From a virus, in IMG/VR virus record IMGVR_UViG_3300022848_000014, positions 1 through 64,000 of that record: DNA of 64,000 bases, one strand, 5' to 3'. Under the pieces are notes generated by a model, which saw only the letters and a list, made by a program, of their open reading frames with translations, was not told where the DNA came from and searched no databases. Positions 39,112 to 54,835 of the stretch are shown in pieces (positions within the stretch are counted from its first letter, which is position 1; every line of letters begins with the position of its first letter). Both the position numbers and the translations under genes were made by a program.

Positions 39112-39196
39112 CATATTTCTCCGTAAGTACTCCGAAAGACGTTGCTCAACAGTCGCTTAATGCCATTCGAAGAGAACGGCACGAAGCTTAGTGTTA
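39112..39196 (-). repeat. 85-bp inverted repeat, partner of 54783-54867
   Basis: Reverse complement matches 54783-54867 with 2 mismatches. Confidence 0.95.
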
Positions 39197-39199
39197 GCT
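39144..39199 (-). mobile_element. attC-like site E
   Basis: Minus strand AGCTAAC-ACTAAGCTTCGTGCCGTTC TCTTC GAATGGCATTAAGCGACT-GTTGAGC, imperfect palindrome. Confidence 0.7.
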
Positions 39200-39206
39200 G
39201 CAAGTG

Positions 39207-40040
39207 CTACGTTCCAGTTTTAATTGAAAGTTCGTACATATCAGCCGTAATAATATTTTTTTCTCCCACCCTCTCTTTTGAGATTTGATACATATCAAAA
39301 TCATTTTCAATGCCAATGTAGTTTCTTTTTGTTTCAAAACAAGAAAGTCCAGTTGTATTACTTCCGCAAGTATTATCAAGAACCCAATCATTTTCATTTG
39401 AGTAGGTTTTAACAAGGTATTTAATCAACTCCAGTGGTTTTTGAGTTGGATGTAATGCTGATTTTTGTTTATCAGTAGCAAAACTCAAAACACTTTTCGG
39501 GTATCGTTCTGTACTATCATAAGTTGTAAGCCCATGTTCACCATAGTTAGTAGTCTTTTTAGAGTTTCTTTTATGCTTTGCTGTGCTTACCTTTCTTTCG
39601 TGTCCAGTAGTCTTTTGTGGGTTATACGTTGGTAATCTCTTGTAGAATACCAGTATGTCTTCGTGGCTTCTCAATGGCATTCTTTTAGCGTTTAAGTGTC
39701 CTGTTGGGGTTGTTTTTTGCCAAATTAGATTATATCTATGTAGCTTCTCATTTGAGAGCATCAACCTTGCAGAAAATTTATCCTGTCCGAAAAGAACTAT
39801 TGCCCCATTTTTAACTATTATTCTTTCGTATTGCTCCCAAAGTAAATTCAAATCAATGAGTGAATCCCATTTATTCTTAGTTACACCATAAGGTAAATCA
39901 CAACAAATTAGGTTTATGCTTTGGTCGGGTATTTGTTTCATCATCTGAAGGCAGTCTCCAAACCAAAGAATGTTTTTGGTTTTTTCAAAACCATCTTTGC
40001 CACCGCTCAAAAAAATATTATTACTACGTTCGTTTTTCAT
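39207..40040 (-). CDS. DNA N6-adenine/N4-cytosine methyltransferase (beta class)
   Basis: GDCL..M, CDLPYG, HPTQKP, VLDNTCGS.TT, YIGIE. Confidence 0.92.
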   Translation of the reverse strand: MKNERSNNIFLSGGKDGFEKTKNILWFGDCLQMMKQIPDQSINLICCDLPYGVTKNKWDSLIDLNLLWEQYERIIVKNGAIVLFGQDKFSARLMLSNEKLHRYNLIWQKTTPTGHLNAKRMPLRSHEDILVFYKRLPTYNPQKTTGHERKVSTAKHKRNSKKTTNYGEHGLTTYDSTERYPKSVLSFATDKQKSALHPTQKPLELIKYLVKTYSNENDWVLDNTCGSNTTGLSCFETKRNYIGIENDFDMYQISKERVGEKNIITADMYELSIKTGT

Positions 40041-40073
40041 ATCAAAGTTTTGTGTTTAAAATCCGCACCAGTC

Positions 40074-40168
40074 AGCTAACATGGTATATAAAAAATAGCC
40101 TATTAAAGTTCGGTGTATAATATCAATGTTTGTGGTCAGGCTACTTTTCATATACCTGTCCGTTAGCA
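40074..40168 (-). mobile_element. attC-like site D
   Basis: TGCTAAC..GGTATATGAAAAGTAGCCT...AGGCTATTTTTTATATACC.T-GTTAGCT on the minus strand. Confidence 0.75.
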
Positions 40169-40178
40169 ACAATAAAAA

Positions 40179-40355
40179 TTATTCCTCCCACCAGTAAAGC
40201 ACCTTAAAGAAGCTCTTTATCATTTCAGGAACATCCCATTCATCACCTAACCAAGTGCTTTCCCCTTCACCATTGTTACAAGAAGGTGCATTGTTTTTTA
40301 TTCTGTATTTACCAACAGAAGTTGGTTGTCTTTCGTTTGTGCTTACCCAAGCCAT
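40179..40355 (-). CDS. 58-aa cassette protein (MAWVSTNERQP..., DUF551-like start)
   Basis: Single ORF filling the space between sites C and D. Confidence 0.6.
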   Translation of the reverse strand: MAWVSTNERQPTSVGKYRIKNNAPSCNNGEGESTWLGDEWDVPEMIKSFFKVLYWWEE

Positions 40356-40367
40356 AATTTTAAAAGT

Positions 40368-40461
40368 TGCTAACAAAAGCTATAAATAAAAGCCTTGTTA
40401 AGGTTTGTGTGTGAATTGAACTTTGTGTTGAAGGCTTCAATTCATAGCCTAGTCATTACCT
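40368..40461 (-). mobile_element. attC-like site C (AAT variant)
   Basis: AGGTAAT..GCTATGAATTGAAGCCTT...AAGGCTTTTATTTATAGC..GTTAGCA on the minus strand. Confidence 0.7.
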
Positions 40462-40469
40462 GCAAGTGC

Positions 40470-41609
40470 TTAGACTTGTGCTAAACTTGAAGATTCGTGC
40501 TTATCATCCCGTAATAATATTTTTTTTCTCCCCTCTTTTGATTCTGCTAATATTAGAGCTTTGAATATTTGAAATGCAACCTGGGGTACAATTGCATTTC
40601 CGTATGCTTTTATTGATTCTTGTCGCCATTTAGGAAAGGTAATTCCGTCCAGTTGGTTGGAAATCCCATCATTTCCGCTACAAATTGGGGATTGAGTTGG
40701 CCATCTACCATCATAGTAAGTCCAACTTGCTTTCCTTTCTCCAAACGATTCAGAACGCATTTGTCCTTTGGGTTTCCCCTGTTCCTGTTGTCGCTTGCAT
40801 TCGGTGTCGGCAACATTCCTTTTTGATTCCACTTCGCTACCGTTTCTTCCAAATTCCCTTTGTTCCTGTTTGCTAATTTCTCGCTGTTTAGATTGCATCC
40901 GTTTACTTGGTTCGCTCTCGGTGTCGGTATTAATCCCTGAGATATTTGATGTGATAATGTTGTTTGAACTTTCGTTCCGTCTTTCCTGTACCAAGAGGTT
41001 TCCTTCCAAATCCAACCTTTTTCTTTTGCTCTCTCTGGCGTTATGTTCGCCATTGGATTTGCGCTCGGTGTTGATAGCAATAAACCAGACCCTATCTCTT
41101 CTATGGGGAGCGTTGACGGCAGCAGCTGGAAGTACACACGGTTGTACTTTGTACCCTTCATTTTCCAAGTCAGCTTGCACCTCGTTGAAAACCAATCCGT
41201 CATTCCAACTAATGAGACCAGAAACATTTTCTGCCACAACATATTTGGGTTTAATCTCTCGAATTGCTCTAAGCATTTCTGGCCAGAGGTGTCGGTCATC
41301 TTCTTTACCAAGTCTTTTACCTGCTGAGCTGTAAGGTTGGCAGGGGAATCCTCCTGTGAGGATGTCAATTTTTCCTCTGTGAATAGAGAAGTCTGTTTTG
41401 GTAATGTCTTCATAAGATATTGCTTTAGGCCAGTAATGTTTTAGTATTCGTTGACCAAATTCGTTCCATTCGCAATGAAATACGTTTTCCCACCCCATCC
41501 ATTCAGCAGCTAAATCAAAGCCACCAATTCCAGAGAACAGAGAACCGTGTTTTAGGCTATCGCCTAATTTGCCATCGCTCAAAAAAATATTATTACTACG
41601 TTCAGTCAT
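40470..41609 (-). CDS. DNA C5-cytosine methyltransferase, large (alpha-like) chain
   Basis: LFSGIGGF, GGFPCQ, ENV, HRRDRVW, C-terminal YGNAIVPQ (motif X); motif IX absent. Confidence 0.92.
   Translation of the reverse strand: MTERSNNIFLSDGKLGDSLKHGSLFSGIGGFDLAAEWMGWENVFHCEWNEFGQRILKHYWPKAISYEDITKTDFSIHRGKIDILTGGFPCQPYSSAGKRLGKEDDRHLWPEMLRAIREIKPKYVVAENVSGLISWNDGLVFNEVQADLENEGYKVQPCVLPAAAVNAPHRRDRVWFIAINTERKSNGEHNARESKRKRLDLEGNLLVQERRNESSNNIITSNISGINTDTESEPSKRMQSKQREISKQEQREFGRNGSEVESKRNVADTECKRQQEQGKPKGQMRSESFGERKASWTYYDGRWPTQSPICSGNDGISNQLDGITFPKWRQESIKAYGNAIVPQVAFQIFKALILAESKEGRKKILLRDDKHESSSLAQV
40610..41413 (-). CDS. Nested out-of-frame C5-MTase small (beta-like) chain carrying motif IX
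   Basis: 267 aa alternative-frame ORF with three (L/I)(S/P)TP repeats and LNPQFVAEMMGFPTNWT. Confidence 0.7.
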   Translation of the reverse strand: MKTLPKQTSLFTEEKLTSSQEDSPANLTAQQVKDLVKKMTDTSGQKCLEQFERLNPNMLWQKMFLVSLVGMTDWFSTRCKLTWKMKGTKYNRVYFQLLPSTLPIEEIGSGLLLSTPSANPMANITPERAKEKGWIWKETSWYRKDGTKVQTTLSHQISQGLIPTPRANQVNGCNLNSEKLANRNKGNLEETVAKWNQKGMLPTPNASDNRNRGNPKDKCVLNRLEKGKQVGLTMMVDGQLNPQFVAEMMGFPTNWTELPFLNGDKNQ

Positions 41610-41644
41610 TTAATTAAAGTTTGTGTTTATTAATCGCACCAGTC

Positions 41645-41700
41645 AGGTAACACGCTATAAAAGCCATTGAAAAAACGGCTCTTATAGCTATTCGTTAGGC
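41645..41700 (-). mobile_element. attC-like site B
   Basis: GCCTAAC..GCTATAAGAGCCGTT TTTTC AATGGCTTTTATAGC.T-GTTACCT on the minus strand. Confidence 0.75.
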
Positions 41701-41716
41701 ACAATTAAAACAAACT

Positions 41717-42550
41717 TTATTGCATATTAATTTCGCTCTCCGTTTCGCTTCTTTTATCTAAGTCGTTTATCCCACACATACCATTACAATCAAACAATGG
41801 TTTAGGCTCTCTACCTTTCATCATACTAATATCTTTCATTTGTGGGTAGTCTTTATGTGGTTTTAGAAATACTAATCCACCGCCTTTACTTTGGTCTTTC
41901 AACATAGTTATTGGCTTACCTTTAACATTTGTTAGTTCATGCTCCATCGCTGCCATTTTATCAAATTTATCAGGAAAGTCTCTACTCATTTTCTGCCAAT
42001 ATCCAATTCCACCTTGTACGCATCCAGTCTTAAAACAATTGTTATTTAAGAACCCTAATTGATACATATTTGGAACTTCAATACTTGCATCTTGTACAAT
42101 CTTAATACAATCCTTTTTATTCAATCCATGCATCATTAAAGGAAATAAAGGTTTTGTTTGTGGATGGTTTAAAACCATCCCTTTTGCTCTCTTATATTCG
42201 TCAAGTTCAAACCCAAAAATTTGATGTTTCCATTCATTAGTCTTTTCCCACGTTTCACGTACTTGCCTTTTCATTTCAGAACTACATACAGCACCCTTAG
42301 CATTGTTCAGTGCTTTGTATCTTCGCCAAACTGCTTGAACGCTTTCGTGCTTTGTACTACTTATAGTCTCAATCTCTATGCCATACCAATCGGCACAGTC
42401 TTTCATAAATCGGTAAGTATCATCGTCTTCATTATGTGTATCAATAAAAATAATTCTTACATTTTCTTTACCATACAAATCAATTCCAATTTTACAAGCT
42501 ACCGCACTTGTAATTCCACCACTCCACCAGCCAATTATCTTATATTTCAT
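41717..42550 (-). CDS. PAPS-reductase-like PP-loop protein
   Basis: WWSGGITSAVAC PP-loop; C..E.KR..R, GF...E..R, Y.LGF.NNNC...GCV.GG.GYW. Confidence 0.75.
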   Translation of the reverse strand: MKYKIIGWWSGGITSAVACKIGIDLYGKENVRIIFIDTHNEDDDTYRFMKDCADWYGIEIETISSTKHESVQAVWRRYKALNNAKGAVCSSEMKRQVRETWEKTNEWKHQIFGFELDEYKRAKGMVLNHPQTKPLFPLMMHGLNKKDCIKIVQDASIEVPNMYQLGFLNNNCFKTGCVQGGIGYWQKMSRDFPDKFDKMAAMEHELTNVKGKPITMLKDQSKGGGLVFLKPHKDYPQMKDISMMKGREPKPLFDCNGMCGINDLDKRSETESEINMQ

Positions 42551-42951
42551 ATTGCAAATGATTTTAAATATTCCACACCATCTTCTAATGTGTCAAAAAC
42601 AATATCAGAAACCTGTGTTACAAAGGATAAGTAATTATCTTTTATTGTTTCGTGATTTGGTTCAAGTACAGTTATAACCGTTTTACCCAATCCTTTAGCA
42701 TAACCAGCCTCACAACATAAACCAATACAGCTCGTGTTTGTTTTTTCAATATAAACAAATAGTATATCACTTTGCTTTATAAAATGCAAATCCCATTTTC
42801 CGTACTCATTCACATTCATAATAACCCTTTCGTTATTCTTAAACTCTTTATCTTTTGGGTTAATCCATTCAATATTATCAGAACATTCTTTTACTTTATT
42901 AGCCCAATCGCTCTTAAAACCACCAGCTAAATATGTTTTTTGTTTTATCAT
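42547..42951 (-). CDS. Nucleoside 2-deoxyribosyltransferase-like protein
   Basis: YLAGG, NP, WDL..I..SD, G...E.GYA..LGK.V. Confidence 0.75.
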   Translation of the reverse strand: MIKQKTYLAGGFKSDWANKVKECSDNIEWINPKDKEFKNNERVIMNVNEYGKWDLHFIKQSDILFVYIEKTNTSCIGLCCEAGYAKGLGKTVITVLEPNHETIKDNYLSFVTQVSDIVFDTLEDGVEYLKSFAI

Positions 42952-42987
42952 TGTATATATTTTTCATATTTTATAATTAATAACTGT

Positions 42988-43118
42988 GCCTAACACGGTA
43001 TAAAAATAATAGCGGTTTTAGGTCTTTATTTAAGGTTAGTAATATTTATTTAATTCTGTTCTTAATCGTTTGGTTCGTGCGTTTCAATCCGCTACTATTC
43101 TTATACAACACGTTACCA
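42988..43118 (-). mobile_element. attC-like site A
   Basis: TGGTAAC..GTATAAGAATAGTAGCGG...CCGCTATTATTTTTATAC..GTTAGGC on the minus strand. Confidence 0.75.
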
Positions 43119-43128
43119 ACAATAAAAA

Positions 43129-43287
43129 TTACTCGTATTGGTCGCTGTCTTTTATCGTTTCAAGAGCACTAATCCTGTCTTGTAAAACTTTCTTCTCTCT
43201 CATTAATAACATTATATCTTCTTCCGCTTTTTTCAAATATAATTTAGTATCCTTTATTGCTGCATCAATTTTTGTCATTTTACTCAT
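43129..43287 (-). CDS. 52-aa coiled-coil protein directly upstream of site A
   Basis: Hand-translated MSKMTKIDAAIKDTK...DQYE; ATGA overlap with the upstream gene. Confidence 0.55.
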   Translation of the reverse strand: MSKMTKIDAAIKDTKLYLKKAEEDIMLLMREKKVLQDRISALETIKDSDQYE

Positions 43288-43676
43288 GGTGTCTTGTGCT
43301 TTTCAGTTTTGTATACGATTCCTCCTGGTACGAAAACTTTACCGTTGTATTTTAGGTGTTCATCCTTGTTGTCCGTCCAAAATAATTCAAAATCGGAATA
43401 AACACTAAGATCATCTCGATCAGAGTAGACGCGAAACTTCATCGACTCTTCTTTTCTTAGCTTCAGGATAGCCTCTCCCTCACCCACGAAAATATACTCA
43501 TGTCCGTAGTCTGCTGTCAATGACTCCACATATACTTCTGAAGGGAAATACAAGTGATAGGTAGTTTTCTGTGCTTTACACGAATTGAATAGGAAGAAGG
43601 TTAAGAAAATTATTCCTGCAGCGAGGGCGCTTAATGTGTAAATGTACTTGCCAATAAAATGATCAGTCCTTGTCAT
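43284..43676 (-). CDS. Membrane-anchored hypothetical protein
   Basis: N-terminal hydrophobic segment. Confidence 0.6.
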   Translation of the reverse strand: MTRTDHFIGKYIYTLSALAAGIIFLTFFLFNSCKAQKTTYHLYFPSEVYVESLTADYGHEYIFVGEGEAILKLRKEESMKFRVYSDRDDLSVYSDFELFWTDNKDEHLKYNGKVFVPGGIVYKTEKHKTP

Positions 43677-43688
43677 GTTGCTTTTTTT

Positions 43689-44096
43689 TTATTGTTGTTT
43701 AATTTTACGTGGAAGCCTCAGGTACCATCTATTTCCTAAGGGCCTCATACTTTTAAGTTCAAAGACAAGAGCATCAATGAACTCTCTATCATACTTGTCT
43801 TTTTCTAACTTAAGACAATTCCTACGATTGAAAATAATATTTAAGTTTCGATCAAAGTACTGCCGAATTTGTGCTGAGGTAAACTTTCTCTTGTTTTTAT
43901 GTGGAAGCCTCAGGTACCATTTATTCCCTAGCACCCTGAAGGTTTGAACTCCATCAAAAAGAATGTCATTGTACACCTGCTCATAGGTGTATATTTCTAT
44001 TTTCTGACAATTACCACGATTGAAAATAAGATTTAAGTTTCGGTCGAAGTACTGCCGAATTTGTGTTTGGGAAAACTTTCTAAAATAATTTCTCAT
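43689..44096 (-). CDS. Basic protein made of two ~64-aa repeats
   Basis: QIRQYFDRNLN.IFNR.NC and LGN.WYLRLP each occur twice; 192-bp DNA period. Confidence 0.65.
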   Translation of the reverse strand: MRNYFRKFSQTQIRQYFDRNLNLIFNRGNCQKIEIYTYEQVYNDILFDGVQTFRVLGNKWYLRLPHKNKRKFTSAQIRQYFDRNLNIIFNRRNCLKLEKDKYDREFIDALVFELKSMRPLGNRWYLRLPRKIKQQ

Positions 44097-44260
44097 CTAT
44101 TTATCTGTTTACCTTGGATTATCTCCATGTGCTTAAGGTTGTATTGGTGTCGTGGCTGATGTAGATTACAAAACTTGAGACTCCAACACGCCCCTTTATC
44201 GCGAACCAACCACTCTGAAGTAGCTCTTTTACCACAATTGCATTTCCCATGAACCGCCAC
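44093..44260 (-). CDS. Small Cys/His-rich hypothetical protein
   Basis: Hand-translated from GTG: MAVHGKCNCGKRA...FCNLH; fills the gap. Confidence 0.4.
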   Translation of the reverse strand: MAVHGKCNCGKRATSEWLVRDKGACWSLKFCNLHQPRHQYNLKHMEIIQGKQINR

Positions 44261-44262
44261 GG

Positions 44263-44838
44263 CTAATTTCCTGAAAACATTCCTGTGGATGCCTCTGGTG
44301 CTTTTGGGTCTGGCATAGAAAGGTATCGGTCAAGTATCTTGTCCCTTAAGATGTACTCTGGGGTCAAATACTTCATTCCATTCTCTTGGTGAAACGAATC
44401 CATCTTTGCCCGATAAATAGCTTTGTGTATTTCCTGAATGCCATATTTTTCGAAAGCTTCAGCAAAGATCTTCTTAGAGCTTTTATCACCCCTCGACTTC
44501 TTGCTGGTAATCTCATTGAATCGCTTGATAAACTCCTTGTACTGGGGGTGATTGGTGATGCTGATCTGCTTAAGCTTAAGAAGCTTGTAAACATTAGCTT
44601 CCATATCTTTTAGGGTCCCTGGCACTCTCTCAAGGACTCCACACAAAATAAGTTCGTCTACCGCAAACCATTCCTCACGTCTCTCATAAACCAAGACTTG
44701 ATTATTACGGAGTTTTATAGGTGTGTCGCTTGGACTCTCCTTTTGACGAATCGCCAAACATATTAGTCTCAAGTAAGACTGAAATGTTTCGGGTGAATGG
44801 GTATTGAGGTGATTGAAATCACTTATGTCTAATAGCAT
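44263..44838 (-). CDS. Phage replication initiator-like protein
   Basis: FN....K......, YLTPEYILR....RYL C-terminal motif of phage replisome organisers. Confidence 0.65.
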   Translation of the reverse strand: MLLDISDFNHLNTHSPETFQSYLRLICLAIRQKESPSDTPIKLRNNQVLVYERREEWFAVDELILCGVLERVPGTLKDMEANVYKLLKLKQISITNHPQYKEFIKRFNEITSKKSRGDKSSKKIFAEAFEKYGIQEIHKAIYRAKMDSFHQENGMKYLTPEYILRDKILDRYLSMPDPKAPEASTGMFSGN

Positions 44839-45148
44839 GTTTTGGGGTCTTTAAGTAATTGATTGCGGTTTCATTCATCAAAATAAACTTGGGGCCAGTC
44901 ATTGGGTCTAACTCCCCTTTGGCATTAAGTTTAGGAAACGGATAGACAACTTCAAAGATTGATGTTCCTGGCTCTATCTTACGCGAAATTGTTGATAGCC
45001 CTACTCTGGCTAATGACGCAAACACACCTATAGGAATCGCGTTCCACCGCAGGTAATACCTTGCGCTTTCTCGGTCTACACCCTGTTTGACTATTTGTTC
45101 CTGAAGATCAATATTGAGACCCAGGACTGGCCTTAGTTTATATGTCAT
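44819..45148 (-). CDS. Hypothetical protein, possible HTH
   Basis: FASLARVGLSTISRKI; first gene after the promoter. Confidence 0.55.
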   Translation of the reverse strand: MTYKLRPVLGLNIDLQEQIVKQGVDRESARYYLRWNAIPIGVFASLARVGLSTISRKIEPGTSIFEVVYPFPKLNAKGELDPMTGPKFILMNETAINYLKTPKHAIRHK

Positions 45149-45166
45149 TTGTGGTTTATTTGATTA

Positions 45167-45197
45167 CAAATGTAGCAGACTATTCTAGGAAAACAAA
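45167..45197 (-). promoter_or_regulatory. Bacteroidota sigma-A promoter for the replication operon
   Basis: TTTG-N19-TACATTTG on the minus strand. Confidence 0.7.
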
Positions 45198-45205
45198 TTT
45201 TACAA

Positions 45206-45889
45206 TTAGAATTGTATTACTGAGTATTGAATTCCAATTCCAATGTTTAACCCAAAACCGTTGTCCCCAATGCCATAAGACACTGAGGGACCAACGCTGA
45301 ATCTTTTTGGCTTCAAGCTGTAATTGAAAGAGCTCAGGTCTTGGGTATAGGTATCTGGATTTAATGATGTCGCCATTATCTGTAGCGTATCGGGTCTGAA
45401 TAGATTCTTCTCCCTATGTACACTGTAATCAAACTTGTTCAAAATCCTCTGCTGAAGGTTAAGGCTGTCTACCCCCATTGTTACAGTTCCTTCTATCCAC
45501 TCCGTACTGAAGGAGGATTGATAGACAGGCATACTATCACGGTATTCGATTATTGTGACCTCATCTGTGCCAATGTCGTATAGAGTCTCTACATCATGGC
45601 TTATAGCGGTAATTGTGTTCTTAAGGTCTTTTAGGGTATTCTGGATTCTCAGGTTTGTCCCCTCTAATCCACGAAGGGCTAACAACTGATCCCGATTCTG
45701 AATCTCTAGGGAATTCTTTTGAGCCACTTGATGACCATGCTTGTTCTGCCAGGACCGCAGACTATCATTGAGGGCTATTTCATTCTTCTTAAATGTTTGA
45801 GTCCTTTGATTGGATTCAACAATAACACCTGCGGAACAGGCTATTGCTATTATGGCTACTAACCATGCTACCTTTTCATTCATACTCAA
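45206..45889 (-). CDS. Spanin-like membrane protein
   Basis: N-terminal TM, coiled coil, C-terminal amphipathic beta strands ending in F (RFSVGPSVSYG...IGIGIQYSVIQF). Confidence 0.5.
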   Translation of the reverse strand: MSMNEKVAWLVAIIAIACSAGVIVESNQRTQTFKKNEIALNDSLRSWQNKHGHQVAQKNSLEIQNRDQLLALRGLEGTNLRIQNTLKDLKNTITAISHDVETLYDIGTDEVTIIEYRDSMPVYQSSFSTEWIEGTVTMGVDSLNLQQRILNKFDYSVHREKNLFRPDTLQIMATSLNPDTYTQDLSSFNYSLKPKRFSVGPSVSYGIGDNGFGLNIGIGIQYSVIQF

Positions 45890-45940
45890 ATGTATAAAAA
45901 AACCCCCATCTGCTTAAGATGAGGGTCAAACCTAACACTA

Positions 45941-46372
45941 CTATGAAAAGTTATGCCAACCAGGATTAATGTGCAAGAAAGAACTTGACAATCCTGAATT
46001 GAATATCCTATTATAGTCTCCGGGGTCTATATGCGCTGAGGCTGTCTTGTCGGGTAGTTCCAGGGCAGGAGGATTTTCAATATTTAGGTTATAAGTCCAG
46101 TATCGACTTTCCCTTGAGTCTGCTTCATGCTTCAAGTAGCAATTACAATAGGAATACTCTAAGTCTTCCTCTAATGTAACGAACATGTCGCCAGCTTCAG
46201 GGAATAGAGTCATTTCCAGACTTGAATAGACACCGATAGTAAAATCGTTGTCAAGGGTCACATCAACTATGCTGATGTCAGGTGGGGCTTCTTCCACAGG
46301 GAATACCGTCGAGGCACTTGCGGAGAAAGAGAACACCAAGATGGCCATTAAGCCGAACAGTGTTTTTTTCAT
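45941..46372 (-). CDS. Secreted hypothetical protein
   Basis: Signal peptide MKKTLFGLMAILVFSFSASA. Confidence 0.6.
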   Translation of the reverse strand: MKKTLFGLMAILVFSFSASASTVFPVEEAPPDISIVDVTLDNDFTIGVYSSLEMTLFPEAGDMFVTLEEDLEYSYCNCYLKHEADSRESRYWTYNLNIENPPALELPDKTASAHIDPGDYNRIFNSGLSSSFLHINPGWHNFS

Positions 46373-46510
46373 CTTTTTGTTTTTAGTATAATAACATTTG
46401 ATTCCAAACATAGCCACAGATTTCGGTAAATCCTAATTAGTCTGATCTTCCGTTATTAACATTCATGCTGTTAATATCAGTCTAACAACTTTGTAATTGA
46501 CTGAAAATCA

Positions 46511-46541
46511 AAATGCCCAGCACTTCGGGTACTGGGCATTT
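46511..46541. terminator. Hairpin, possible bidirectional terminator
   Basis: AAATGCCCAG/CTGGGCATTT stem. Confidence 0.55.
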
Positions 46542-46656
46542 ACTTCGAATAAAAAAATTGCTGTCTAAGTTTCGCTCGTTTGCGATACATTTGACGCTAT
46601 GAAATTGGTATCGCACAATAGTACTCTAATTTCTTCTGAAGCAAAAACAATAGTCG

Positions 46657-47310: not shown

Positions 47311-47392
47311 ACATTGGCAGTGGGCATTGTGAAAACATCTTTTTTTGTGGTTAAGAAAAGTATTCGCAGTGCCCCTGCTTTAATTTAAAACC

Positions 47393-47770
47393 ATGGCAGA
47401 ACTATTTAACCGTAATAAAGTAGCATCTAAAGGATTGCACAATTACATCCAACGAATGCTTAAGGCAAAGGATAAACGCGAAGTCTTGAAATTATTGCGG
47501 GACTATGCGCCCATCACCAACAAAGCACAGCGACTTATCCTTGGGTTAAAGCCAAACTACTTTAATGTGTTCATGATGCAGAGGGTAGAATACTACACCA
47601 ATAAGCATGTGAGTGATGAAATGGTGATGTTAAGAGAAGTATTCGTTCCAGAATTATTGGAGCAAATCAAGGAGATAGCCGTTAAGGAAAATCGGAACGA
47701 AGAGAAGTTAGTCAAGAATTATATTTTAGGTAAAAACATAAAATCCAAACCGTATGTCAAAGAAAAATAG
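47393..47770 (+). CDS. Hypothetical protein
   Basis: ORF track. Confidence 0.65.
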   Translation: MAELFNRNKVASKGLHNYIQRMLKAKDKREVLKLLRDYAPITNKAQRLILGLKPNYFNVFMMQRVEYYTNKHVSDEMVMLREVFVPELLEQIKEIAVKENRNEEKLVKNYILGKNIKSKPYVKEK

Positions 47771-48047
47771 TGCAATTCCTGTTGGGGATAGAGTACTTGT
47801 AATCCCTGATCAAGCCCAGCAAGAGATGTTTGGGCTTATGATTCCCTCTCAAGCTCAAAAGAAAGTCCAGACTGGTAGAGTAATAGCTGTTGGTAAAGGG
47901 AAGGGCGAATTGGAAATGCAGACAAAGGCTGGGGATACAATTCTCTACAGTGACTTTGCTGGAACTGAAATCAAAATCGATGATGTTGTTCATATCATCA
48001 TGCGTGAAACCGATGTTTATTGCATCCTTAAAAATGAAGAAGTATGA
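47754..48047 (+). CDS. groES: Co-chaperonin GroES
   Basis: PVGDRVLV, GLMIP..A.KK...G.VIAVG.G, KAGD.ILYS.FAGTEIK, IMRETDV. Confidence 0.93.
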   Translation: MSKKNSAIPVGDRVLVIPDQAQQEMFGLMIPSQAQKKVQTGRVIAVGKGKGELEMQTKAGDTILYSDFAGTEIKIDDVVHIIMRETDVYCILKNEEV

Positions 48048-49801
48048 GAAAAAAGTTAATTGAATTCGATAATGCCAAGGAAAAGATGGCTCTAGGGGCT
48101 AATAAACTGGCAAGGGCTGTTTCATGTACCCTGGGACCAAAAGGTAGGAACGTTGTGCTCTATCTTGAAGATGGCCGAATGCACACGACAAAAGATGGTG
48201 TGACTGTAGCACTCTTTACAAAGTTCTTTGATCAAATAGAAGATGCTGGTGCCACGTTCCTTCAGGATGCATCAAAGAAAACGGTTCACCAGTCAGGTGA
48301 TGGGACAACTACTTGTACACTCGTAGCCAATGCGCTCATCCAGCAAGGGGTGACATACCTCAAGGATAAGATGCACTCTGCTGTGGAGTACACAGATGGA
48401 ATTCAAAAAGCCTCTAGGAATCTAATCGAAGAGTTGGTGCAGGAGTCAATCGAAATCAATGGGGATTTAGATATGATTGAGAATGTTGCTAGGATAAGTG
48501 CCAACAACGATGCTGAACTAGGGAAAATCATCCGTGAAGCTATTGAGGCTGTGGGTTTAGATTCCATCATTCAGGCAGACGACAGTGGGGACAACACCAC
48601 TTCAGTTAAAGTAGTAGATGGAATGGAATTCCAAAATGGATTCAAGCACCCTTACTACATTAATGACCATAAGGGTCGGTGTGTGTTTGATGACAAGAGT
48701 GACAAGGTGAAAGTGATCATTATAGACAATGACCTTACGACACTGAAGCAAGTAATTATGATGATGAAGCATATTGGGGAGAACAACCTGAAGGCTGTCA
48801 TTGTATGCAATCAAATGATTGGTGAAGCAGATAGTGTAGCCCTTGTCAATGTCCAAAATAATGGGCTAAAGGTTTGTGTAGTCAATGCCCCAGGCATGGG
48901 GGACCGAAGACGGGCTTATCTCAGGGATTTAGGGATATTCACTGGTGCCACGGTAATCGGTGATGAAACGGGCACGGAGATCGAAAATTTCAAGCCAGAA
49001 TGGATGGGTACTTGTGAGAAGTTTGTGGCAGATGCTAAGACCTCCCGATTCATTATGGGGGGTAACGTTCCTGACGTTGTTCAGGGCGATATTGATTCTT
49101 TGAAATTAAAGATGGTTAAGCCTGGCCCAGAGAGTTCAATGGAAGCAAGGGCTAATTACACAAGGCAAAAGCAAGAAGTAAAGGATCTCTACGAAAAGAA
49201 GAAGTTGATTACAAATGAGATCGGAAGTATTGAGACTCAAATTGGTAATACAACAGATGCCTTTGCTATCAAGAAGCACAAAGAACGCATTCAGAGGCTC
49301 AAGGGTAAGGCTGCAATCATCTTAGTAGGGGCACAGACCACTCAAGAGCTTCGTCAAAAGAAAGATCGAGTAGATGATGCCATAAAAGCTACTCAAGCTT
49401 CAGTTGAGGAAGGAATCGTGCCTGGTGGTGGTGTCAGCTTCTATAATGCCATGAAAAGGGTAACGCTTAATGATCCTTATGCTGGTGATGAGACACCTGA
49501 GCAAATAGGTTACTACGCATTCCTAGATGTGATGTCTGAAGTTCTGATTAAGATTTGCGAAAATTCAGGGTATGACGTTGCCTCTACTATAGCAAAGATG
49601 GAAGCTCGGAAAGACATGCAATTTGGTCTTAACGCAAAGAGTGGTGAATTCTGCAACCTGATAGACGCAGGGATCATCAATCCTACTAAAGTTGATCGTG
49701 TAGCAATTGAAAACGCGACATCTTCAGCTTGCACAATGCTATTGTCGGAGTGTGTTATATACCCCGATCCTGAAGCATTTGAAGAGGTGCCCCAGCAATA
49801 A
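48044..49801 (+). CDS. groEL: Chaperonin GroEL
   Basis: TLGPKGRNV, TKDGVTVA, GDGTTT, APG.GDRR, KDRVDDA, EEGIVPGGG. Confidence 0.95.
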   Translation: MRKKLIEFDNAKEKMALGANKLARAVSCTLGPKGRNVVLYLEDGRMHTTKDGVTVALFTKFFDQIEDAGATFLQDASKKTVHQSGDGTTTCTLVANALIQQGVTYLKDKMHSAVEYTDGIQKASRNLIEELVQESIEINGDLDMIENVARISANNDAELGKIIREAIEAVGLDSIIQADDSGDNTTSVKVVDGMEFQNGFKHPYYINDHKGRCVFDDKSDKVKVIIIDNDLTTLKQVIMMMKHIGENNLKAVIVCNQMIGEADSVALVNVQNNGLKVCVVNAPGMGDRRRAYLRDLGIFTGATVIGDETGTEIENFKPEWMGTCEKFVADAKTSRFIMGGNVPDVVQGDIDSLKLKMVKPGPESSMEARANYTRQKQEVKDLYEKKKLITNEIGSIETQIGNTTDAFAIKKHKERIQRLKGKAAIILVGAQTTQELRQKKDRVDDAIKATQASVEEGIVPGGGVSFYNAMKRVTLNDPYAGDETPEQIGYYAFLDVMSEVLIKICENSGYDVASTIAKMEARKDMQFGLNAKSGEFCNLIDAGIINPTKVDRVAIENATSSACTMLLSECVIYPDPEAFEEVPQQ

Positions 49802-49838
49802 TTGAATGCAATTAGTTAAACCCTAAATACAGAGTAAA

Positions 49839-50102
49839 ATGCCAGAATTAGATAACGGTGAACCCCAAGCGTCAAGACCATTGACTTTTGGTGAGAAAGC
49901 AGTGGGACTAAGATTTAACCCAGGCGGTATGACTGAAGTAGATGAGTGCAAATCTATCTTTGCAGAAGCAATTGATCAAATGCATGATTTCCGAGAGTTG
50001 GAAAGCTCTACCAAAGGTCAAAAGCGTCATGCTTCTATTGCCATTACAGAACTTGAGTCAGCACAAATGAGAGCCGTTAAAGCTCTTACTTGGAAAGACT
50101 AA
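49839..50102 (+). CDS. Acb2/Tad1-like helical hairpin protein (candidate immune-signal sponge)
   Basis: GE..VG..FNP.G...V...K...A..ID ... R.ASIAITELE.AQM.AVKA pattern. Confidence 0.55.
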   Translation: MPELDNGEPQASRPLTFGEKAVGLRFNPGGMTEVDECKSIFAEAIDQMHDFRELESSTKGQKRHASIAITELESAQMRAVKALTWKD

Positions 50103-50108
50103 AGTAAA

Positions 50109-50181
50109 GCCAAGGCTCATTTGCAAATTGTCTTTCATTGTGGCGGGTAGTAGGAGAATCCTACGACAAATGGGTCTTGGT
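50109..50181 (+). ncRNA. Structured intergenic element, copy 1
   Basis: Closing stem GCCAAGGCTCATTTG/CAAATGGGTCTTGGT; second copy at 50676. Confidence 0.5.
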
Positions 50182-50185
50182 AAAT

Positions 50186-50292
50186 TCGGAAGTGGCGAAA
50201 TGGTAGACGCTATTAATAGGATGATGTTGGTGGAAAAGAAAAGCGCACCCAACTAAAAAACATCCATGTAGGTTCGAATCCTGTCTTCCGAA
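50186..50292 (+). ncRNA. tRNA-like RNA with expanded, non-canonical anticodon region
   Basis: Acceptor TCGGAAG/CTTCCGA, D-arm GCGAAATGGTAGACGC, T-arm GTAGGTTCGAATCCTGT; no 7-nt anticodon loop. Confidence 0.6.
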
Positions 50293-50332
50293 CTAATAAT
50301 CAAATAATTTATATTCATCTAAAAACCGCAAA

Positions 50333-50665
50333 ATGAACGAAGCAAAAATGTCAGAACCAGGATCAAGACAGACCTGTTCATCAGTATTACGTGATATTAC
50401 TGATTCAATAGGCCATACCCAAGATGTTCTAAACGAACTAGAGCGTAATATGGGTCAATTCTTTGACTCTTCCTCAGAAGATGATGCCAAAGGGCCCATA
50501 GCTGCAGAAGCAAAAAACTCCTTGAATGGTGAGACAATCCATGAGGTAGTGTTTGGTCATGGTGACAAGTTTTCTTTTCACACGCTAAACCAAATTGCCC
50601 ACTTAACTAGTACACAGTCGAGTCAATTGACAAGGATTATGGATCAAATAAACACGAACCTTTAG
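50333..50665 (+). CDS. Hypothetical protein
   Basis: ORF track; AAACCGCAAA leader. Confidence 0.65.
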   Translation: MNEAKMSEPGSRQTCSSVLRDITDSIGHTQDVLNELERNMGQFFDSSSEDDAKGPIAAEAKNSLNGETIHEVVFGHGDKFSFHTLNQIAHLTSTQSSQLTRIMDQINTNL

Positions 50666-50675
50666 TAAAACATAA

Positions 50676-50746
50676 GCCAAGACCCATTTGCTTTTTACAA
50701 ATTGTAACTCGGCATGGGAAACTCCCATTAGTAGGTGGGTCTTGGT
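50676..50746 (+). ncRNA. Structured intergenic element, copy 2
   Basis: Closing stem GCCAAGACCCATTTGC/GTAGGTGGGTCTTGGT. Confidence 0.5.
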
Positions 50747-50768
50747 AATTTTATAAACCACAAAAAGA

Positions 50769-51035
50769 ATGATTATTACAGCCAAACCAATTCGAATCGG
50801 TACTTCTGGGAGCAATGGTAAGTTCCGAAAAGAAGTTTCCTCATTGTACGACATTCATAAATGGATGAGTGAAAAGAGTGGTGAAATGCTAACGGTTAAG
50901 CTTAAGAAGAATCAACTTTTCTCTCAGCCCAAGACTCATGCCGAAAGCCGTGAACAAGAGTATGCGATAAGACACCACGCAAAAAATTTCAGATCGGCAG
51001 GAGAAGGTTTACGATCAAGCCCCTTTACTTTTTGA
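50769..51035 (+). CDS. Hypothetical protein
   Basis: ORF track. Confidence 0.55.
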   Translation: MIITAKPIRIGTSGSNGKFRKEVSSLYDIHKWMSEKSGEMLTVKLKKNQLFSQPKTHAESREQEYAIRHHAKNFRSAGEGLRSSPFTF

Positions 51036-51039
51036 GTAA

Positions 51040-51276
51040 ATGAATAATTCAAAAAACATATTAGAGTCTTTTGATTTTCTGGACGAGCTAGGTAAAAGCT
51101 GGTCTAAATCCAGAATGAATGAGCCTGGCAGGATTGTCAGAACATCTAAGGGTGTCATTGGGAGGATAGTAAACTCAGAGCCTTCAGTTACAAAGGGGAA
51201 AATAGCAGTCTATACCAAGGAAGATACTATCTTGTGTAGCCCTGACTCACTAAGAACAATTGGATTCATAAACTAA
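51040..51276 (+). CDS. Hypothetical protein
   Basis: ORF track. Confidence 0.6.
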   Translation: MNNSKNILESFDFLDELGKSWSKSRMNEPGRIVRTSKGVIGRIVNSEPSVTKGKIAVYTKEDTILCSPDSLRTIGFIN

Positions 51277-51277
51277 G

Positions 51278-51496
51278 ATGAACGAGGATCACTTTGAATT
51301 TATAGAGTATCGGATGTCCATTATTGATGGTCTAGTCAGGAAAATAGCAGTTTACCGTGAGCGCCCAATTGTTGTGACTGGGAAGTTTATAGGGTTTAAA
51401 GAAATAGATTTTGATGAAATTGACCAGTTCCAAGACTCATGGACTGAAGAAGAGAAAGAATTATACAATCCAAACCACAATAATCTAAAACGCTAA
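51278..51496 (+). CDS. Hypothetical protein
   Basis: ORF track. Confidence 0.55.
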   Translation: MNEDHFEFIEYRMSIIDGLVRKIAVYRERPIVVTGKFIGFKEIDFDEIDQFQDSWTEEEKELYNPNHNNLKR

Positions 51497-51942
51497 TGTC
51501 AACAGATGAAATTTATACTACTGGATTCCATGTAAAATCTTATGAAATCGTTACTGATTTTCTAGAGGAATTAACTTACAATGATCAATTTCACCCCGAA
51601 GGTGAGAGAACTGTTTTTGTCACAAAAACAAGGGAGGTTCCTGTTATTCTTTACAACACCGTTCTGTCTATAGACAAACCTGTTAAGGCTGGTAATCACT
51701 ATATGGAAATGGAGACTGAAGCACTCTTTATTGCTGTGGGGACGGAGCTAGTGAGTGTTAAACTCTTGAATGAAGTTGAATTGTTTGCTTATAGCTCTCC
51801 TGTTAAATTGGTGCTTGTTAGTTCACCCTTTGATGAAGCTGGCCAAGGATTACATCTTGGGGAAGAAGACATGCATTTGCGAGTACGTCCAATGTCACCA
51901 CTAGACTGCTTTCCTGGTCCCATACCTACTGAAGAAGATTAA
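51496..51942 (+). CDS. Hypothetical protein
   Basis: ORF track; TAATG coupling. Confidence 0.6.
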   Translation: MSTDEIYTTGFHVKSYEIVTDFLEELTYNDQFHPEGERTVFVTKTREVPVILYNTVLSIDKPVKAGNHYMEMETEALFIAVGTELVSVKLLNEVELFAYSSPVKLVLVSSPFDEAGQGLHLGEEDMHLRVRPMSPLDCFPGPIPTEED

Positions 51943-51964
51943 TCTACAATGATCGTTAATATCA

Positions 51965-52426
51965 ATGTACATATCAAAGAAAACAAGGGAGGTAGTCCGG
52001 TTGAAGTTTGGGGGGCTCTGCGCCTATTCTGGGACTGTATTAGAGAGCGATTGGCAAGTAGATCACCTTAAGCCTTTGATTAGGGGTTATGATGGAGCCC
52101 CACGGTTTCCTGAGAGGCATTCAATTGATAACATGGTTCCTTCTCAAAAAATCATTAATCATTACAAGGGAACACTCGATCCAGAAACCTTTAGGTCTTG
52201 GTATCTTGGGGGACTCCATGAGAGGCTGAAGAAACTCCCCCGAAAAACTAGGGTCAAGAACACAAGAAACAGGAAGAGGTATTTAAGGCGTGTTGCCTCA
52301 TTCTTTGATATTACACCTGACACGCCATTTTCAGGAATCTTTTATTATGAAATACATAAACCACAACATGGGACAATTAGAGGAAACACCAGAAGAAAAA
52401 TCAAAAAGATCAGCACAACTAATTGA
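51965..52426 (+). CDS. HNH endonuclease-like protein
   Basis: R..V..KFGG.CAYSG..L...WQVDH..P ... NMVPS....N.YK. Confidence 0.8.
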   Translation: MYISKKTREVVRLKFGGLCAYSGTVLESDWQVDHLKPLIRGYDGAPRFPERHSIDNMVPSQKIINHYKGTLDPETFRSWYLGGLHERLKKLPRKTRVKNTRNRKRYLRRVASFFDITPDTPFSGIFYYEIHKPQHGTIRGNTRRKIKKISTTN

Positions 52427-52694
52427 GATGGCCAAGCTGTATCTGCTTCAGATTGACGAAAATCACTTAGAATCAGTGTCAACCCAGCTACACACACAAG
52501 CATCTAGGCAGGAGTCAATGTCCATCATTAATATGCATTACTATCCAGAGAAGACGCAAATACTAAGAGCTCAGGCTGGTGCTTTGGGTGCTTTGTTGTC
52601 ATTTATTAGTCATCTCAAGGAAATCGATCAGTTGAAAAAGACCTTAGACAAAGCCAAGCAGGGTAGGGAGCAAATAGATAGATTGTTTTTGTAG
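52368..52694 (+). CDS. Hypothetical protein
   Basis: ATG after an AAACCACAAC leader. Confidence 0.55.
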   Translation: MGQLEETPEEKSKRSAQLIEMAKLYLLQIDENHLESVSTQLHTQASRQESMSIINMHYYPEKTQILRAQAGALGALLSFISHLKEIDQLKKTLDKAKQGREQIDRLFL

Positions 52695-52697
52695 TTC

Positions 52698-53003
52698 ATG
52701 CGTCACAAAGCCTATAAAACTGACTACAGTTGGCATTATCTTCAGATCAAGGAAAGATTGAAGAATGCTTTCATAAAGGATGGATTCAGTAGATCTTTTT
52801 ATGGTGATTACTTGAGTAAGGAAATACTCTATAGCCTCCTGTTTGAATTCAGAGTGGGTGATCCACCTAACTGTAGCTCTAGGGGCTCAAAGAAAGATTG
52901 GAGAGACTGGCATATTGTTCTTGAGACTCATGGGACTTGGCTCAAGTTTTATCAGTTCTATCTTTGTTCAGTTGATATTTATGAATGGAATAAAATAAAA
53001 TGA
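52698..53003 (+). CDS. Hypothetical protein
   Basis: ORF track. Confidence 0.5.
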   Translation: MRHKAYKTDYSWHYLQIKERLKNAFIKDGFSRSFYGDYLSKEILYSLLFEFRVGDPPNCSSRGSKKDWRDWHIVLETHGTWLKFYQFYLCSVDIYEWNKIK

Positions 53004-53015
53004 AAACAGAGCAAA

Positions 53016-53240
53016 ATGAAAAACAATAAAATTATAAGCAGTTTTAAATATTGGGCAATCACTAGAAAATGGTTGTGGCAAAGAGTCGTTTTTGATAATG
53101 GTGTTGTTGGCAGAAACTATCACAGATATGACCATATCTTGTATTCTTATTGTCAAGGAATGGGTGATAATGGAGAGTATGGAGGTATTAATACCGTAAT
53201 AAAATTACAAGTGGAATCATCTATGCGTAATTGTGCCTAA
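53016..53240 (+). CDS. Hypothetical cassette-type protein; stop codon lies inside site F
   Basis: Ends TGT GCC TAA(C). Confidence 0.6.
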   Translation: MKNNKIISSFKYWAITRKWLWQRVVFDNGVVGRNYHRYDHILYSYCQGMGDNGEYGGINTVIKLQVESSMRNCA

Positions 53241-53297
53241 CGGTTTGTATATGAAATCGGCTGACGATAGGAAGCTGTTTTATATACCGTGTTAGCC
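53235..53297 (+). mobile_element. attC-like site F
   Basis: GCCTAAC-GGTTTGTATATGAAATCGGCT...AGCTGTTTTATATACCGT-GTTAGCC. Confidence 0.75.
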
Positions 53298-53335
53298 ATC
53301 TGGCTGTGGTAAATTAAGAACTAAAATTAAATAGA

Positions 53336-53980
53336 ATGAAAATATTAATAGCTTGTGAGGAGAGCCAAGAAGTTTGTAAGGCTTTCCGAGAAATAGGATT
53401 TGAGGCTTATAGTTGCGATATGCAAGAATGTAGTGGTGGTAAACCTGAATGGCATATTGTAGGTGATGCAGTTGTAGAAGCGTATAGTGGTAAATATGAC
53501 CTTATGATAGCGCACCCACCTTGCACTTATATTAGTAGAGCTGGTGCAAGATGGATGTACCCAACAGCAGGAAATTTAAGCCAAGAAAGATTTAATAAAG
53601 CAATGGAAGCGAAGGATTTGTTTATGAAATTATTGAACGCTCCTATACCTTATATTGCTGTTGAGAACCCAACATTGTTAAAAGTAGTTGGATTGCCTAA
53701 ACAAAGCCAAGCGGTGCAACCTTATGAATACGGACACCCTTATAGTAAAAGAACTCTGCTGTGGATTAAAAATTTACCACTATTAAGCCCAACCAAAATA
53801 GTAAGCGAATATAAGCCGTACTTACCAAGTAATACAGGGGGCAAAAAACGAGGGCAGAAATATCAATTTAAGAACATAAGCCAAAAGGAAAGCAGTAAAA
53901 CTTTTAGCGGAATTGCAAAAGCTATGGCTGAACAATGGGGAAACTTCATTAAAAGCGATAATGTAGCAGCTTGTGGCTAA
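53336..53980 (+). CDS. Phage DNA cytosine methyltransferase-like protein
   Basis: ILIACEES, SCD, IAHPPCT, ENP, K.TLLW...LP, SKTF.GIA.AMAEQWG; stop inside site G. Confidence 0.8.
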   Translation: MKILIACEESQEVCKAFREIGFEAYSCDMQECSGGKPEWHIVGDAVVEAYSGKYDLMIAHPPCTYISRAGARWMYPTAGNLSQERFNKAMEAKDLFMKLLNAPIPYIAVENPTLLKVVGLPKQSQAVQPYEYGHPYSKRTLLWIKNLPLLSPTKIVSEYKPYLPSNTGGKKRGQKYQFKNISQKESSKTFSGIAKAMAEQWGNFIKSDNVAACG

Positions 53981-54042
53981 CGTGTTGTATATGATTAAGC
54001 GATAGCGACCCTTTTTAGGGTTAATTATATACGGTGTTACCT
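53975..54042 (+). mobile_element. attC-like site G
   Basis: GGCTAAC-GTGTTGTATATGATTAA...TTAATTATATACGGT-GTTACCT. Confidence 0.75.
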
Positions 54043-54068
54043 GCAGTACGGATTATTAAAAACGAAAT

Positions 54069-54773
54069 ATGAAAAGAAACAAAATATATTTAGGGGATTG
54101 TTTAGAGTTGATGCCTAAACACGTAGAAGATAAAAGCGTTGATATGATTTTTTGCGATTTACCTTATGGAACAACACAAAACAAATGGGATAGCGTTATA
54201 CCTTTTGAGCCACTTTGGGAACAATATAAGAGAGTTATAAAAGATAATGGAGCTATTGTGTTATTTGGCTCACAACCTTTTACAAGTGCTTTAATTATGA
54301 GTGAACCTAAAATGTTTAAATACTCTTGGTATTGGTTAAAAAATAGAGCTACTGGAGTTTTAAACTCTAAAAAACAACCGTTAAGAAATATTGAAGAAAT
54401 TTGTGTTTTTAATATAAAGAAATATAACCCACAAGGATTGATTGAGGTGAACCAACCAAGTAGAAACAGCAAGAAAGATTACGATAACTATGGGAAAGGA
54501 ACTAGTAAACAATACACTCAAAAATACACAAACTACCCAAAGCAATTGATTGAGTTTAATAGCGTGCAAAGAACAACGCACCCAACAGAAAAGCCATTAG
54601 ATTTAATTGAATATATGATTAAGACTTACACAAATGAAGGTGATTTGATACTTGATAATACTTGTGGAAGTGGAACAACTGGAAGAGGAGCGAAGAACTT
54701 AAACAGAGATTATATTATGATGGAGCAAGAAGAGAAGTATTATGACATTGCTTGTAAAAGACTACTAACTTAG
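54069..54773 (+). CDS. DNA N6-adenine/N4-cytosine methyltransferase (beta class), paralogue of 39207-40040
   Basis: GDCLELM, CDLPYG, HPTEKP, ILDNTCGSGTT. Confidence 0.92.
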   Translation: MKRNKIYLGDCLELMPKHVEDKSVDMIFCDLPYGTTQNKWDSVIPFEPLWEQYKRVIKDNGAIVLFGSQPFTSALIMSEPKMFKYSWYWLKNRATGVLNSKKQPLRNIEEICVFNIKKYNPQGLIEVNQPSRNSKKDYDNYGKGTSKQYTQKYTNYPKQLIEFNSVQRTTHPTEKPLDLIEYMIKTYTNEGDLILDNTCGSGTTGRGAKNLNRDYIMMEQEEKYYDIACKRLLT

Positions 54774-54779
54774 TATTGC

Positions 54780-54835
54780 AGGTAACACTAAGCTTCGTGC
54801 CGTTCTCTTCGAATGGCATTAAGCGACTGTTTAGC
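54780..54835 (+). mobile_element. attC-like site H (same body as site E)
   Basis: AGGTAAC-ACTAAGCTTCGTGCCGTTC...GAATGGCATTAAGCGACT-GTTTAGC. Confidence 0.7.

Follow-up and report, generated by a model that had tools for sequence, protein, structure and literature searches.

Two inverted arrays of probable integron-type gene cassettes in a lytic-type tailed phage genome

Sites, units and genes at the locus

The DNA considered here (the window) comprises positions 1 to 64,000 of the viral record IMGVR_UViG_3300022848_000014, which is 73.7 kb long and has direct terminal repeats. The window contains two sets of hairpin sites that delimit six short gene units (Table 1). These sets are quite probably two arrays of integron-type mobile gene cassettes in a lytic-type tailed phage genome, acquired through the mechanism set out below. 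The record encodes a portal protein, the large terminase and virion proteins, as well as RecT/RecE-like proteins, a primase/helicase-like protein, an endolysin and a GroEL-like chaperonin (phrog_5725), and DNA nearly identical to the window is present in salt-lake metagenomes.

All eight sites follow the pattern RYYYAAC, hairpin, GTTRRRY (a left and a right box around a folded core), and they are organised as two inverted arrays with the six units between them. The left array consists of five sites on the minus strand, running from 43118 to 39144 with the intervening genes also on the minus strand, and the right array of three sites on the plus strand, from 53235 to 54835, likewise with its genes on the plus strand. 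Left boxes end in AAC in seven of the eight sites (in L2 the box ends in AAT) and right boxes begin with GTT in all eight. The sites fold into an imperfect inner palindrome with a variable loop and an unpaired spacer of 5-6 nt in one arm versus 2-4 nt in the other, and the two strands of a site are made unequal by G-T pairs, by one extra base in one arm and by these spacers. The strand with the more stable hairpin is the gene strand in five of the six window sites that belong to the site family described in the next section. A comparison with Rfam gave no matching family for the sites of the window or for those of the bacterial loci introduced there.

The cargo amounts to two N6/N4 and one C5 DNA methyltransferases, one two-gene unit and two proteins, the 65-aa product of c3 and the 214-aa product of c5, for which no Pfam family was found. 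The methyltransferases would probably counter host restriction enzymes, which would give the cargo an anti-restriction role. As a separate observation, c2 and c4 (window 39193-41651) have in common with gp38 of Polaribacter phage P12002L (L007) the 5′ leader CTGACTGGTGCG..AAACACAAA, the first codons and the 3′ end GCACTTGCAG, and the methyltransferase cores enclosed by these ends are unrelated; judging from the sequences, this suggests that cores have been exchanged inside a common cassette shell.

Table 1. Sites, cassettes, genes and flanking features of the two arrays. Site coordinates are given in gene orientation; L0-L4 belong to the left array and R0-R2 to the right array.
Feature	Position	Strand	Content
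Site L0	43118-42988	minus	long site; covariance model 44.8 bits
Site L1	41700-41645	minus	covariance model 36.5 bits
Site L2	40461-40368	minus	covariance model 23.4 bits
Site L3	40168-40074	minus	covariance model 45 bits
Site L4 (anchor hairpin)	39199-39144	minus	
Site R0	53235-53297	plus	covariance model 53.2 bits
Site R1	53975-54042	plus	covariance model 43.7 bits
Site R2 (anchor hairpin)	54780-54835	plus	
Cassette c1	41695..43112	minus	site L0, then two genes
c1 gene	42547-42951	minus	nucleoside 2-deoxyribosyltransferase-like
c1 gene	41717-42550	minus	PAPS-reductase-like
Cassette c2	40456..41694	minus	site L1, then C5 cytosine DNA methyltransferase gene
c2 gene	40470-41609	minus	379 aa; PF00145, 4.9e-51
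Cassette c3	40163..40455	minus	site L2, then 65-aa open reading frame (40179-40376)
Cassette c4	39194..40162	minus	site L3 at head, then N6/N4 DNA methyltransferase gene
c4 gene	39207-40040	minus	277 aa; PF01555, 2.4e-27
Cassette c5	53241..53980	plus	site R0, then 214-aa gene (53336-53980)
Cassette c6	53981..54785	plus	site R1, then N6/N4 DNA methyltransferase gene
c6 gene	54069-54773	plus	234 aa; PF01555, 8.2e-31
Left arm of 92-nt inverted repeat	39112..39203	minus	L4 and 38-nt leader, up to the ATG of a 56-aa backbone gene (38944-39114)
Right arm of 92-nt inverted repeat	54776..54867	plus	R2 and the same 38-nt leader, then only a 10-codon frame
Central 10-kb segment between the arrays	43113..53240		phage genes including GroES/GroEL-like

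Complementary unit ends and the family of sites

Complementarity between the start and the end of a cassette is a classic consequence of the integron G/TT crossover (the slash marking the point of exchange), and the signature described here is this classic one rather than a new one. The start of each of the six units was compared with the reverse complement of its own end. Counted from the G of GTT, the perfect run extends over 10, 9, 8, 8 and 10 nt in five units, and in c2 a 7-nt match stands behind an initial G/A mismatch, because the end box of c2 is AAT and not AAC. The pairing reaches 12 of 13 positions in c1 and 13 of 14 in c6, and thus goes beyond the 7-bp R box. Starts and ends that do not belong to the same unit match over only 4-6 nt, with the exception of c2 and c6 (both have CCTG), and the two boxes within any present-day site match over only 0-6 nt. 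When identities at positions 5-14 are summed, the true pairing scores 40 against a permutation mean of 23.7, and it is the only one of the 720 permutations to reach that value.

Folding gives the same picture. Specifically, junctions rebuilt in silico by joining the end of a unit to its own start fold at -12.4 to -18.0 kcal/mol, compared to -7.4 to -13.0 kcal/mol for the present-day sites, so that the rebuilt junctions fold better by 2.7 to 8.9 kcal/mol. The flanks contribute a gain of -43.2, where permutations average -21.4, and two of 720 permutations reach it, namely the true pairing and the swap of c2 and c6, which have the box CCTG in common. Since the observed match is reached in one of 720 permutations and the fold gain in two of 720, the complementarity is real and not a product of chance. 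The original prediction, which was made from the letters of this DNA without database searches, had placed the eight sites and six units at these positions and had claimed that every unit is complementary to its own end, that the two ends of a present-day site mismatch beyond the core and that pairing often continues past the R box; all of this is borne out, and the comparison with shuffled pairings and the circularisation and folding that it proposed as checks both came out in its favour. Explanations by terminators only or by chance are rejected by the permutation tests.

The sites are not confined to the window. A degenerate pattern derived from R0 and R1 matches more than 120 bacterial genome records (about 8 are expected by chance, as an estimate), and these are almost all Bacteroidota, including Flavobacteriales, Saprospiraceae, Cytophagales and others. 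Built on an alignment of 59 bacterial sites and three from the window, a covariance model recovers six of the eight sites in the window with 23-53 bits, gives no other match in the 64 kb, and also detects sites in an uncultured phage (L001), in Cellulophaga phage phi18:3 and in phage P12002L; every one of these phage matches lies on the strand of the local genes. The same model matches 22 of the 41 Flavobacteriaceae genomes sampled. In bacterial loci the sites form rows of up to six or seven, co-oriented and mostly 0.5-3 kb apart, and the units between them match at all six positions of own start and own end in 13 of 21 cases (mean 4.95, compared to 2.26 in a control with mismatched pairs). 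Because the bacterial rows show the same complementarity, the phage sites are members of a family by which genuine cassette arrays are marked in the phylum that probably includes the host.

The bacterial arrays differ from those of the phages in orientation. Of 21 bacterial units, 20 have their open reading frame on the strand opposite to the site, and the same strand of the site forms the more stable hairpin in 99% of 121 cases from bacteria. Since bacterial open reading frames oppose their sites whereas phage sites all lie on the gene strand, the phage cassettes are most likely mirror images of the bacterial ones, if the bacterial arrangement is taken as canonical. Arrays of this site family were also seen in the Bacteroidota chromosomes of Polaribacter sp. 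HL-MS24 (L134:1-17380), L135 and L013, where they stand beside a recombinase of about 400 aa that is Xer-like. In addition, each of five complete genomes has a single copy of a highly conserved 60-nt site type (TAACGKTTAGTATATGAAGCGTAGC...GCTATGATTTCATATACAKTGTTA); a literature search with a conserved bacterial 16-mer returned no match.

Site ownership, candidate recombinase and anchor

Complementarity of this kind is symmetric and therefore cannot tell which box is cut. Five independent lines of comparative evidence bear on the site that is inherited with a gene, and because of them the crossover is placed in the left box: they indicate that a gene owns the site upstream of it and not the one downstream, with exchange predicted at TAA/C on the gene strand, which is G/TT on the complementary strand. 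The gene of c5, for instance, has many relatives in viral contigs. Their homology starts in the R0 box, covers the gene and breaks off at the TAAC of R1 (L136, 99.6%; L137, 91%; L140, 87%), and among the five closest relatives the downstream site differs in all five, with the R0-type core kept upstream in three. Similarly, a relative of a c1 gene (L225) has a long L0-type core upstream (82% identity) and a different site downstream, and phage L001 carries two paralogous methyltransferase cassettes with near-identical upstream and different downstream sites; its units also show complementarity of own start and own end. In the covered parts of the salt-lake contig layout, R1 and c6 are joined to at least three other upstream sequences, with the divergence exactly at TAAC (place 53978), c3 is joined to other sequence just before its GTTAGCAAC at 40161 (plus strand), and one contig ends at 39193 and 40081, in the c4 region. 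The fifth line is the layout of the bacterial arrays, in which the genes oppose the site in 20 of 21 units and the associated recombinase keeps to one side of it in 13 of 13 loci.

These comparisons refine the original prediction, according to which each unit had been a circle opened at GTT on integration. The insertion of circular units and a crossover in the conserved triplet remain the reading favoured here, but the box that would be cut is TAA/C on the gene strand. Its further claim, that the hairpins reflect site-specific insertion and not terminators, agrees with the permutation and fold tests, with the recurrence of the same cassettes within the same boundaries elsewhere (c5 in L136, L137 and L140; c1 in L225) and with the bacterial arrays that carry the same signature.

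No tyrosine recombinase was detectable in the whole 73.7-kb record, searched in six frames with TIGR02249 and Pfam PF00589. In Polaribacter sp. HL-MS24, a 402-aa tyrosine recombinase is encoded on the minus strand at L134:16172-17380, 2.2 kb from the nearest site and in the same direction as the cassette genes, and in all 13 bacterial loci that include a homologue, this is found on the same side of the site. In the Flavobacteriaceae sample, recombinase and site occur on one contig in seven genomes, in four of which they are at most 2.5 kb apart. The 402-aa protein passes the XerA/integron-integrase model NF040815 (237 bits) and stays below the cut-off of TIGR02249 (214 bits versus 265), and when aligned to VchIntIA it lacks an equivalent of residues 207-246, which make up the integron-specific insertion of about 40 aa. 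A search of five site-holding genomes gave no integron integrase above cut-off. The acting enzyme is likely, judging by this proximity, to be a Xer-like recombinase of the host and not a classical integron integrase.

On their gene-distal side, both arrays end in the same hairpin, called the anchor, which has a 49-nt core and is followed by a 38-nt leader; the two copies form an inverted repeat whose arms are 97% complementary and 15.6 kb apart. The core is also found in further contigs of viral and metagenome origin, with all but one position identical, and homology between contigs starts exactly at AAC and, in the case of other backbones, stops just after GTT. The anchor is present on three unrelated downstream backbones, on each of which it is preceded by 2-4 different cassettes, and two backbones have a cassette end (GCACTTGTAGGTAAC) in common. 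Because the anchor stays with the backbone while the adjoining cassettes change, it behaves as a resident docking site that resembles attI in position and attC in shape. In phage L004 the anchor boxes are perfectly complementary (TTTCAAC/GTTGAAA), and this copy is a candidate for an unoccupied docking site; L004 and L001 share their backbone only from the anchor onward, and the upstream region of L004 is absent from the L001 record. A start box GTTGAGC or GTTTAGC, which would make the anchor the attC site of a cassette on the backbone side, was looked for and not found.

Two side observations concern the anchor. In one contig from the salt lake (run X8, depth 3.8), the 3′ end of c4 together with the anchor continues into the backbone flank of the right-hand side (window 39148 to 54832), which implies either an inversion of the 15.6-kb segment by way of the 92-nt repeat or the presence of c4 at the right anchor as well, with cassettes moving between anchors. 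The other is a second, diverged anchor copy in L004 (L004:10-100), which has compensatory stem changes (AAGAAGTGCC...GGCATTTCTT) and a similar leader and which fronts another operon; this pattern suggests that the hairpin may also have a regulatory role.

As to the remainder of the phage genome, a search of a viral collection with the backbone protein that adjoins the left anchor returned no close relatives. The central segment between the arrays holds no sites and gives no match to the covariance model, and the cassette-end motif of the family stands at both of its ends (ATTGTTGGTAA and AATTGTGCCTAA). ARAGORN called no transfer RNA (tRNA) or transfer-messenger RNA in the window. A tRNA-like sequence at 50186-50292 (+) was called by neither ARAGORN nor Rfam; its acceptor stem has 7 bp, and about 60 nt separate the D arm GCGAAATGGTAGACGC from the T arm GGTTCGAATCC. 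Two similar intergenic elements of about 85 nt (AAGCCAAGRCYCATTTGC...GGGTCTTGGTAAWTT), at 50101-50190 and 50668-50760 (+), directly follow stop codons and look like long hairpins, and a tandem duplication of about 190 nt (76% identity; 43703-44081, -) lies within a 135-aa open reading frame (43689-44096).

Proposed mechanism, rival explanations and known systems

In the mechanism proposed here, a cassette would consist of a Bacteroidota-specific, attC-like hairpin site followed by one or two genes, mostly for DNA-modification enzymes. It would be transiently circular, and the site of the circle would have perfectly paired boxes. The infected host would supply the tyrosine recombinase, which would cut one folded strand at TAA/C, and the circle would be joined into the resident 49-nt anchor hairpin of the phage. 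After insertion each site would be a hybrid of two units, and because of this the start of a unit would pair with its own end and not with that of its neighbour. In the mirror layout, the gene would lie on the strand with the more stable hairpin and read toward the docking site.

One alternative is that the cassettes have the classical polarity, that is, each gene is followed by its own attC site, G/TT is cut on the gene strand by a host IntI, and the window holds an ordinary integrase-less attC cluster as in P12002L. The design of the sites and the stop codons inside the TAAC box do look canonical, and the P12002L array was indeed classed in this manner, with IntI1 active on its terminal site (Qi et al. 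2023, PMC9892861). However, what is inherited with a gene is the upstream and not the downstream site, the anchor stays with the downstream backbone, and the genes are oriented the opposite way from those of the bacterial arrays; five site-holding genomes have nothing above the integron-integrase cut-off, and the neighbouring recombinase is without the IntI insertion. In the published assay, P12002L_attC1, which is the family member and was detected by HattCI only, gave no recombinants with IntI1, and attC2, the terminal site, which is predicted to be antisense to the genes, did recombine with IntI1, and only from the gene strand (PMC9892861). Both results fit the mirror-image arrangement, and classical polarity is considered unlikely.

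A different view regards the hairpins as terminators or regulatory stem-loops, and has the units shuffled by homologous recombination at common leaders and trailers through the RecT/RecE-like proteins of the phage, with no site-specific recombinase involved, a route that has been proposed for the promoter-stem-loop cassettes of T4-type phages. Both a RecT-like and a RecE-like gene are present, c2, c4 and P12002L gp38 have common ends around unrelated cores, a T-run follows many bacterial sites on the hairpin strand, and the run X8 contig that joins c4 and the anchor to the right flank is what recombination within the 92-nt repeat would be expected to yield. Nevertheless, homologous shuffling does not predict that the first 7-13 nt of a unit pair with its own last 7-13 nt, the cores of neighbouring sites differ and so offer little homology to recombine, and the breakpoints fall on AAC/GTT triplets in phages and bacteria alike, which makes this view rather improbable. 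That the complementarity is a mere by-product of independent palindromic sites, with no mobility at all, might be argued from the TAAC/GTTA common to all sites, which sets a baseline match of 4 nt. Yet it is the boxes of a single site that agree poorly, and boxes up to 1.4 kb apart that do match, in the one arrangement of 720 that was singled out above; the idea is refuted by the permutation and fold tests and retains hardly any credibility.

Some observations nonetheless weigh against capture by a host recombinase at a resident anchor. The RecT/RecE-like proteins could shuffle units with common leaders, relatives L139, L224 and L226 have the same genes without any site, and the contigs contain alternative junctions but no circles; a recombination event as such was not observed. 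The tie between recombinase and sites is one of proximity alone, and the failure of IntI1 on P12002L_attC1 speaks against classical integrases, not in favour of a Xer-like enzyme. Finally, the anchor is not recognised by the covariance model, and its downstream flank differs between phages right after GTT, neither of which a simple resident-site model accounts for.

Among known systems, integron cassettes with their attC sites are the most similar in RYYYAAC/GTTRRRY hairpins, asymmetric spacer, triplet crossover, hybrid sites and co-oriented units of one or two genes. They differ in that, measured against the polarity of the sites, the phage genes are on the other strand, and that there is no attI beside an integrase; a classical attC stands at the 3′ end of its gene, with the open reading frame co-oriented with the top strand, whereas in the phage the site inherited with a gene is the upstream one. 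In a complete integron an IntI-type integrase adjoins the array, whereas the phage has none and the recombinase neighbouring the host arrays lacks the IntI insertion, and the sole tested member of the window's site family was not recombined by IntI1. Integrase-less attC clusters with methyltransferase cargo have been described in virulent phages, including P12002L (Qi et al. 2023, PMC9892861). This phage likewise is virulent, has a flavobacterium as its host and combines methyltransferase cassettes with the lack of an integrase. It has sites of the window's family and shares its end motifs (AATTGTGCCTAAC, GCACTTGCA...); two sites with 'divergent' predicted directions were reported there, compared to eight sites in two inverted arrays here, and that paper gives neither the start/end signature nor mirror polarity, a common anchor or a chromosomal counterpart in Bacteroidota (PMC9892861). 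In a literature search, no paper describing Bacteroidota arrays, mirror polarity or the anchor was found, and searches for integrons in Flavobacteria and Bacteroidota gave general statements only.

Two further systems invite comparison. T4-type promoter-stem-loop cassettes are small accessory genes in hyperplastic regions, flanked by stem-loops, and have been proposed to move by homologous recombination between the repeated promoter-stem-loops. They resemble the phage units in being stem-loop-flanked accessory genes and differ in that they are not known to have a triplet crossover or complementarity to their own ends. Sedentary chromosomal integrons, for their part, reportedly store anti-phage defence cassettes (a bioRxiv preprint of 2024). 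Cassette arrays would thus take part in phage-host conflict in both cases, here on the phage side and with counter-defence (methyltransferase) cargo. Taken together, the finding is a well-resolved case of phage cassette arrays, and it most likely represents a mirror-image, Xer-associated integron variant.

On a wider scale, and with slightly better than even confidence, Bacteroidota and their phages may share a distinct integron-like capture system, characterised by a Xer-like recombinase of about 400 aa without the IntI insertion, mirror-image sites at the head of the gene, a conserved docking hairpin on several unrelated backbones, and recombinase-less phages that collect anti-restriction methyltransferases from a shared pool. 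Integrons are known as platforms with which bacteria capture genes. IntegronFinder 2.0 reports almost no integrons in Bacteroidetes, and standard integron finders, which depend on canonical attC sites and on the domain specific to IntI, probably record too few such arrays in this phylum. The unrelated genes found inside common shells bear on the open question of cassette origin. If the proposal is true, the counter-defence genes of these phages would constitute a shared and rapidly exchangeable pool that uses a host enzyme and a portable docking hairpin, and such a pool would explain the high variability of methyltransferase islands in flavobacterial phages. The clean boundaries, the candidate unoccupied site and the variants from one salt lake make the system directly testable.

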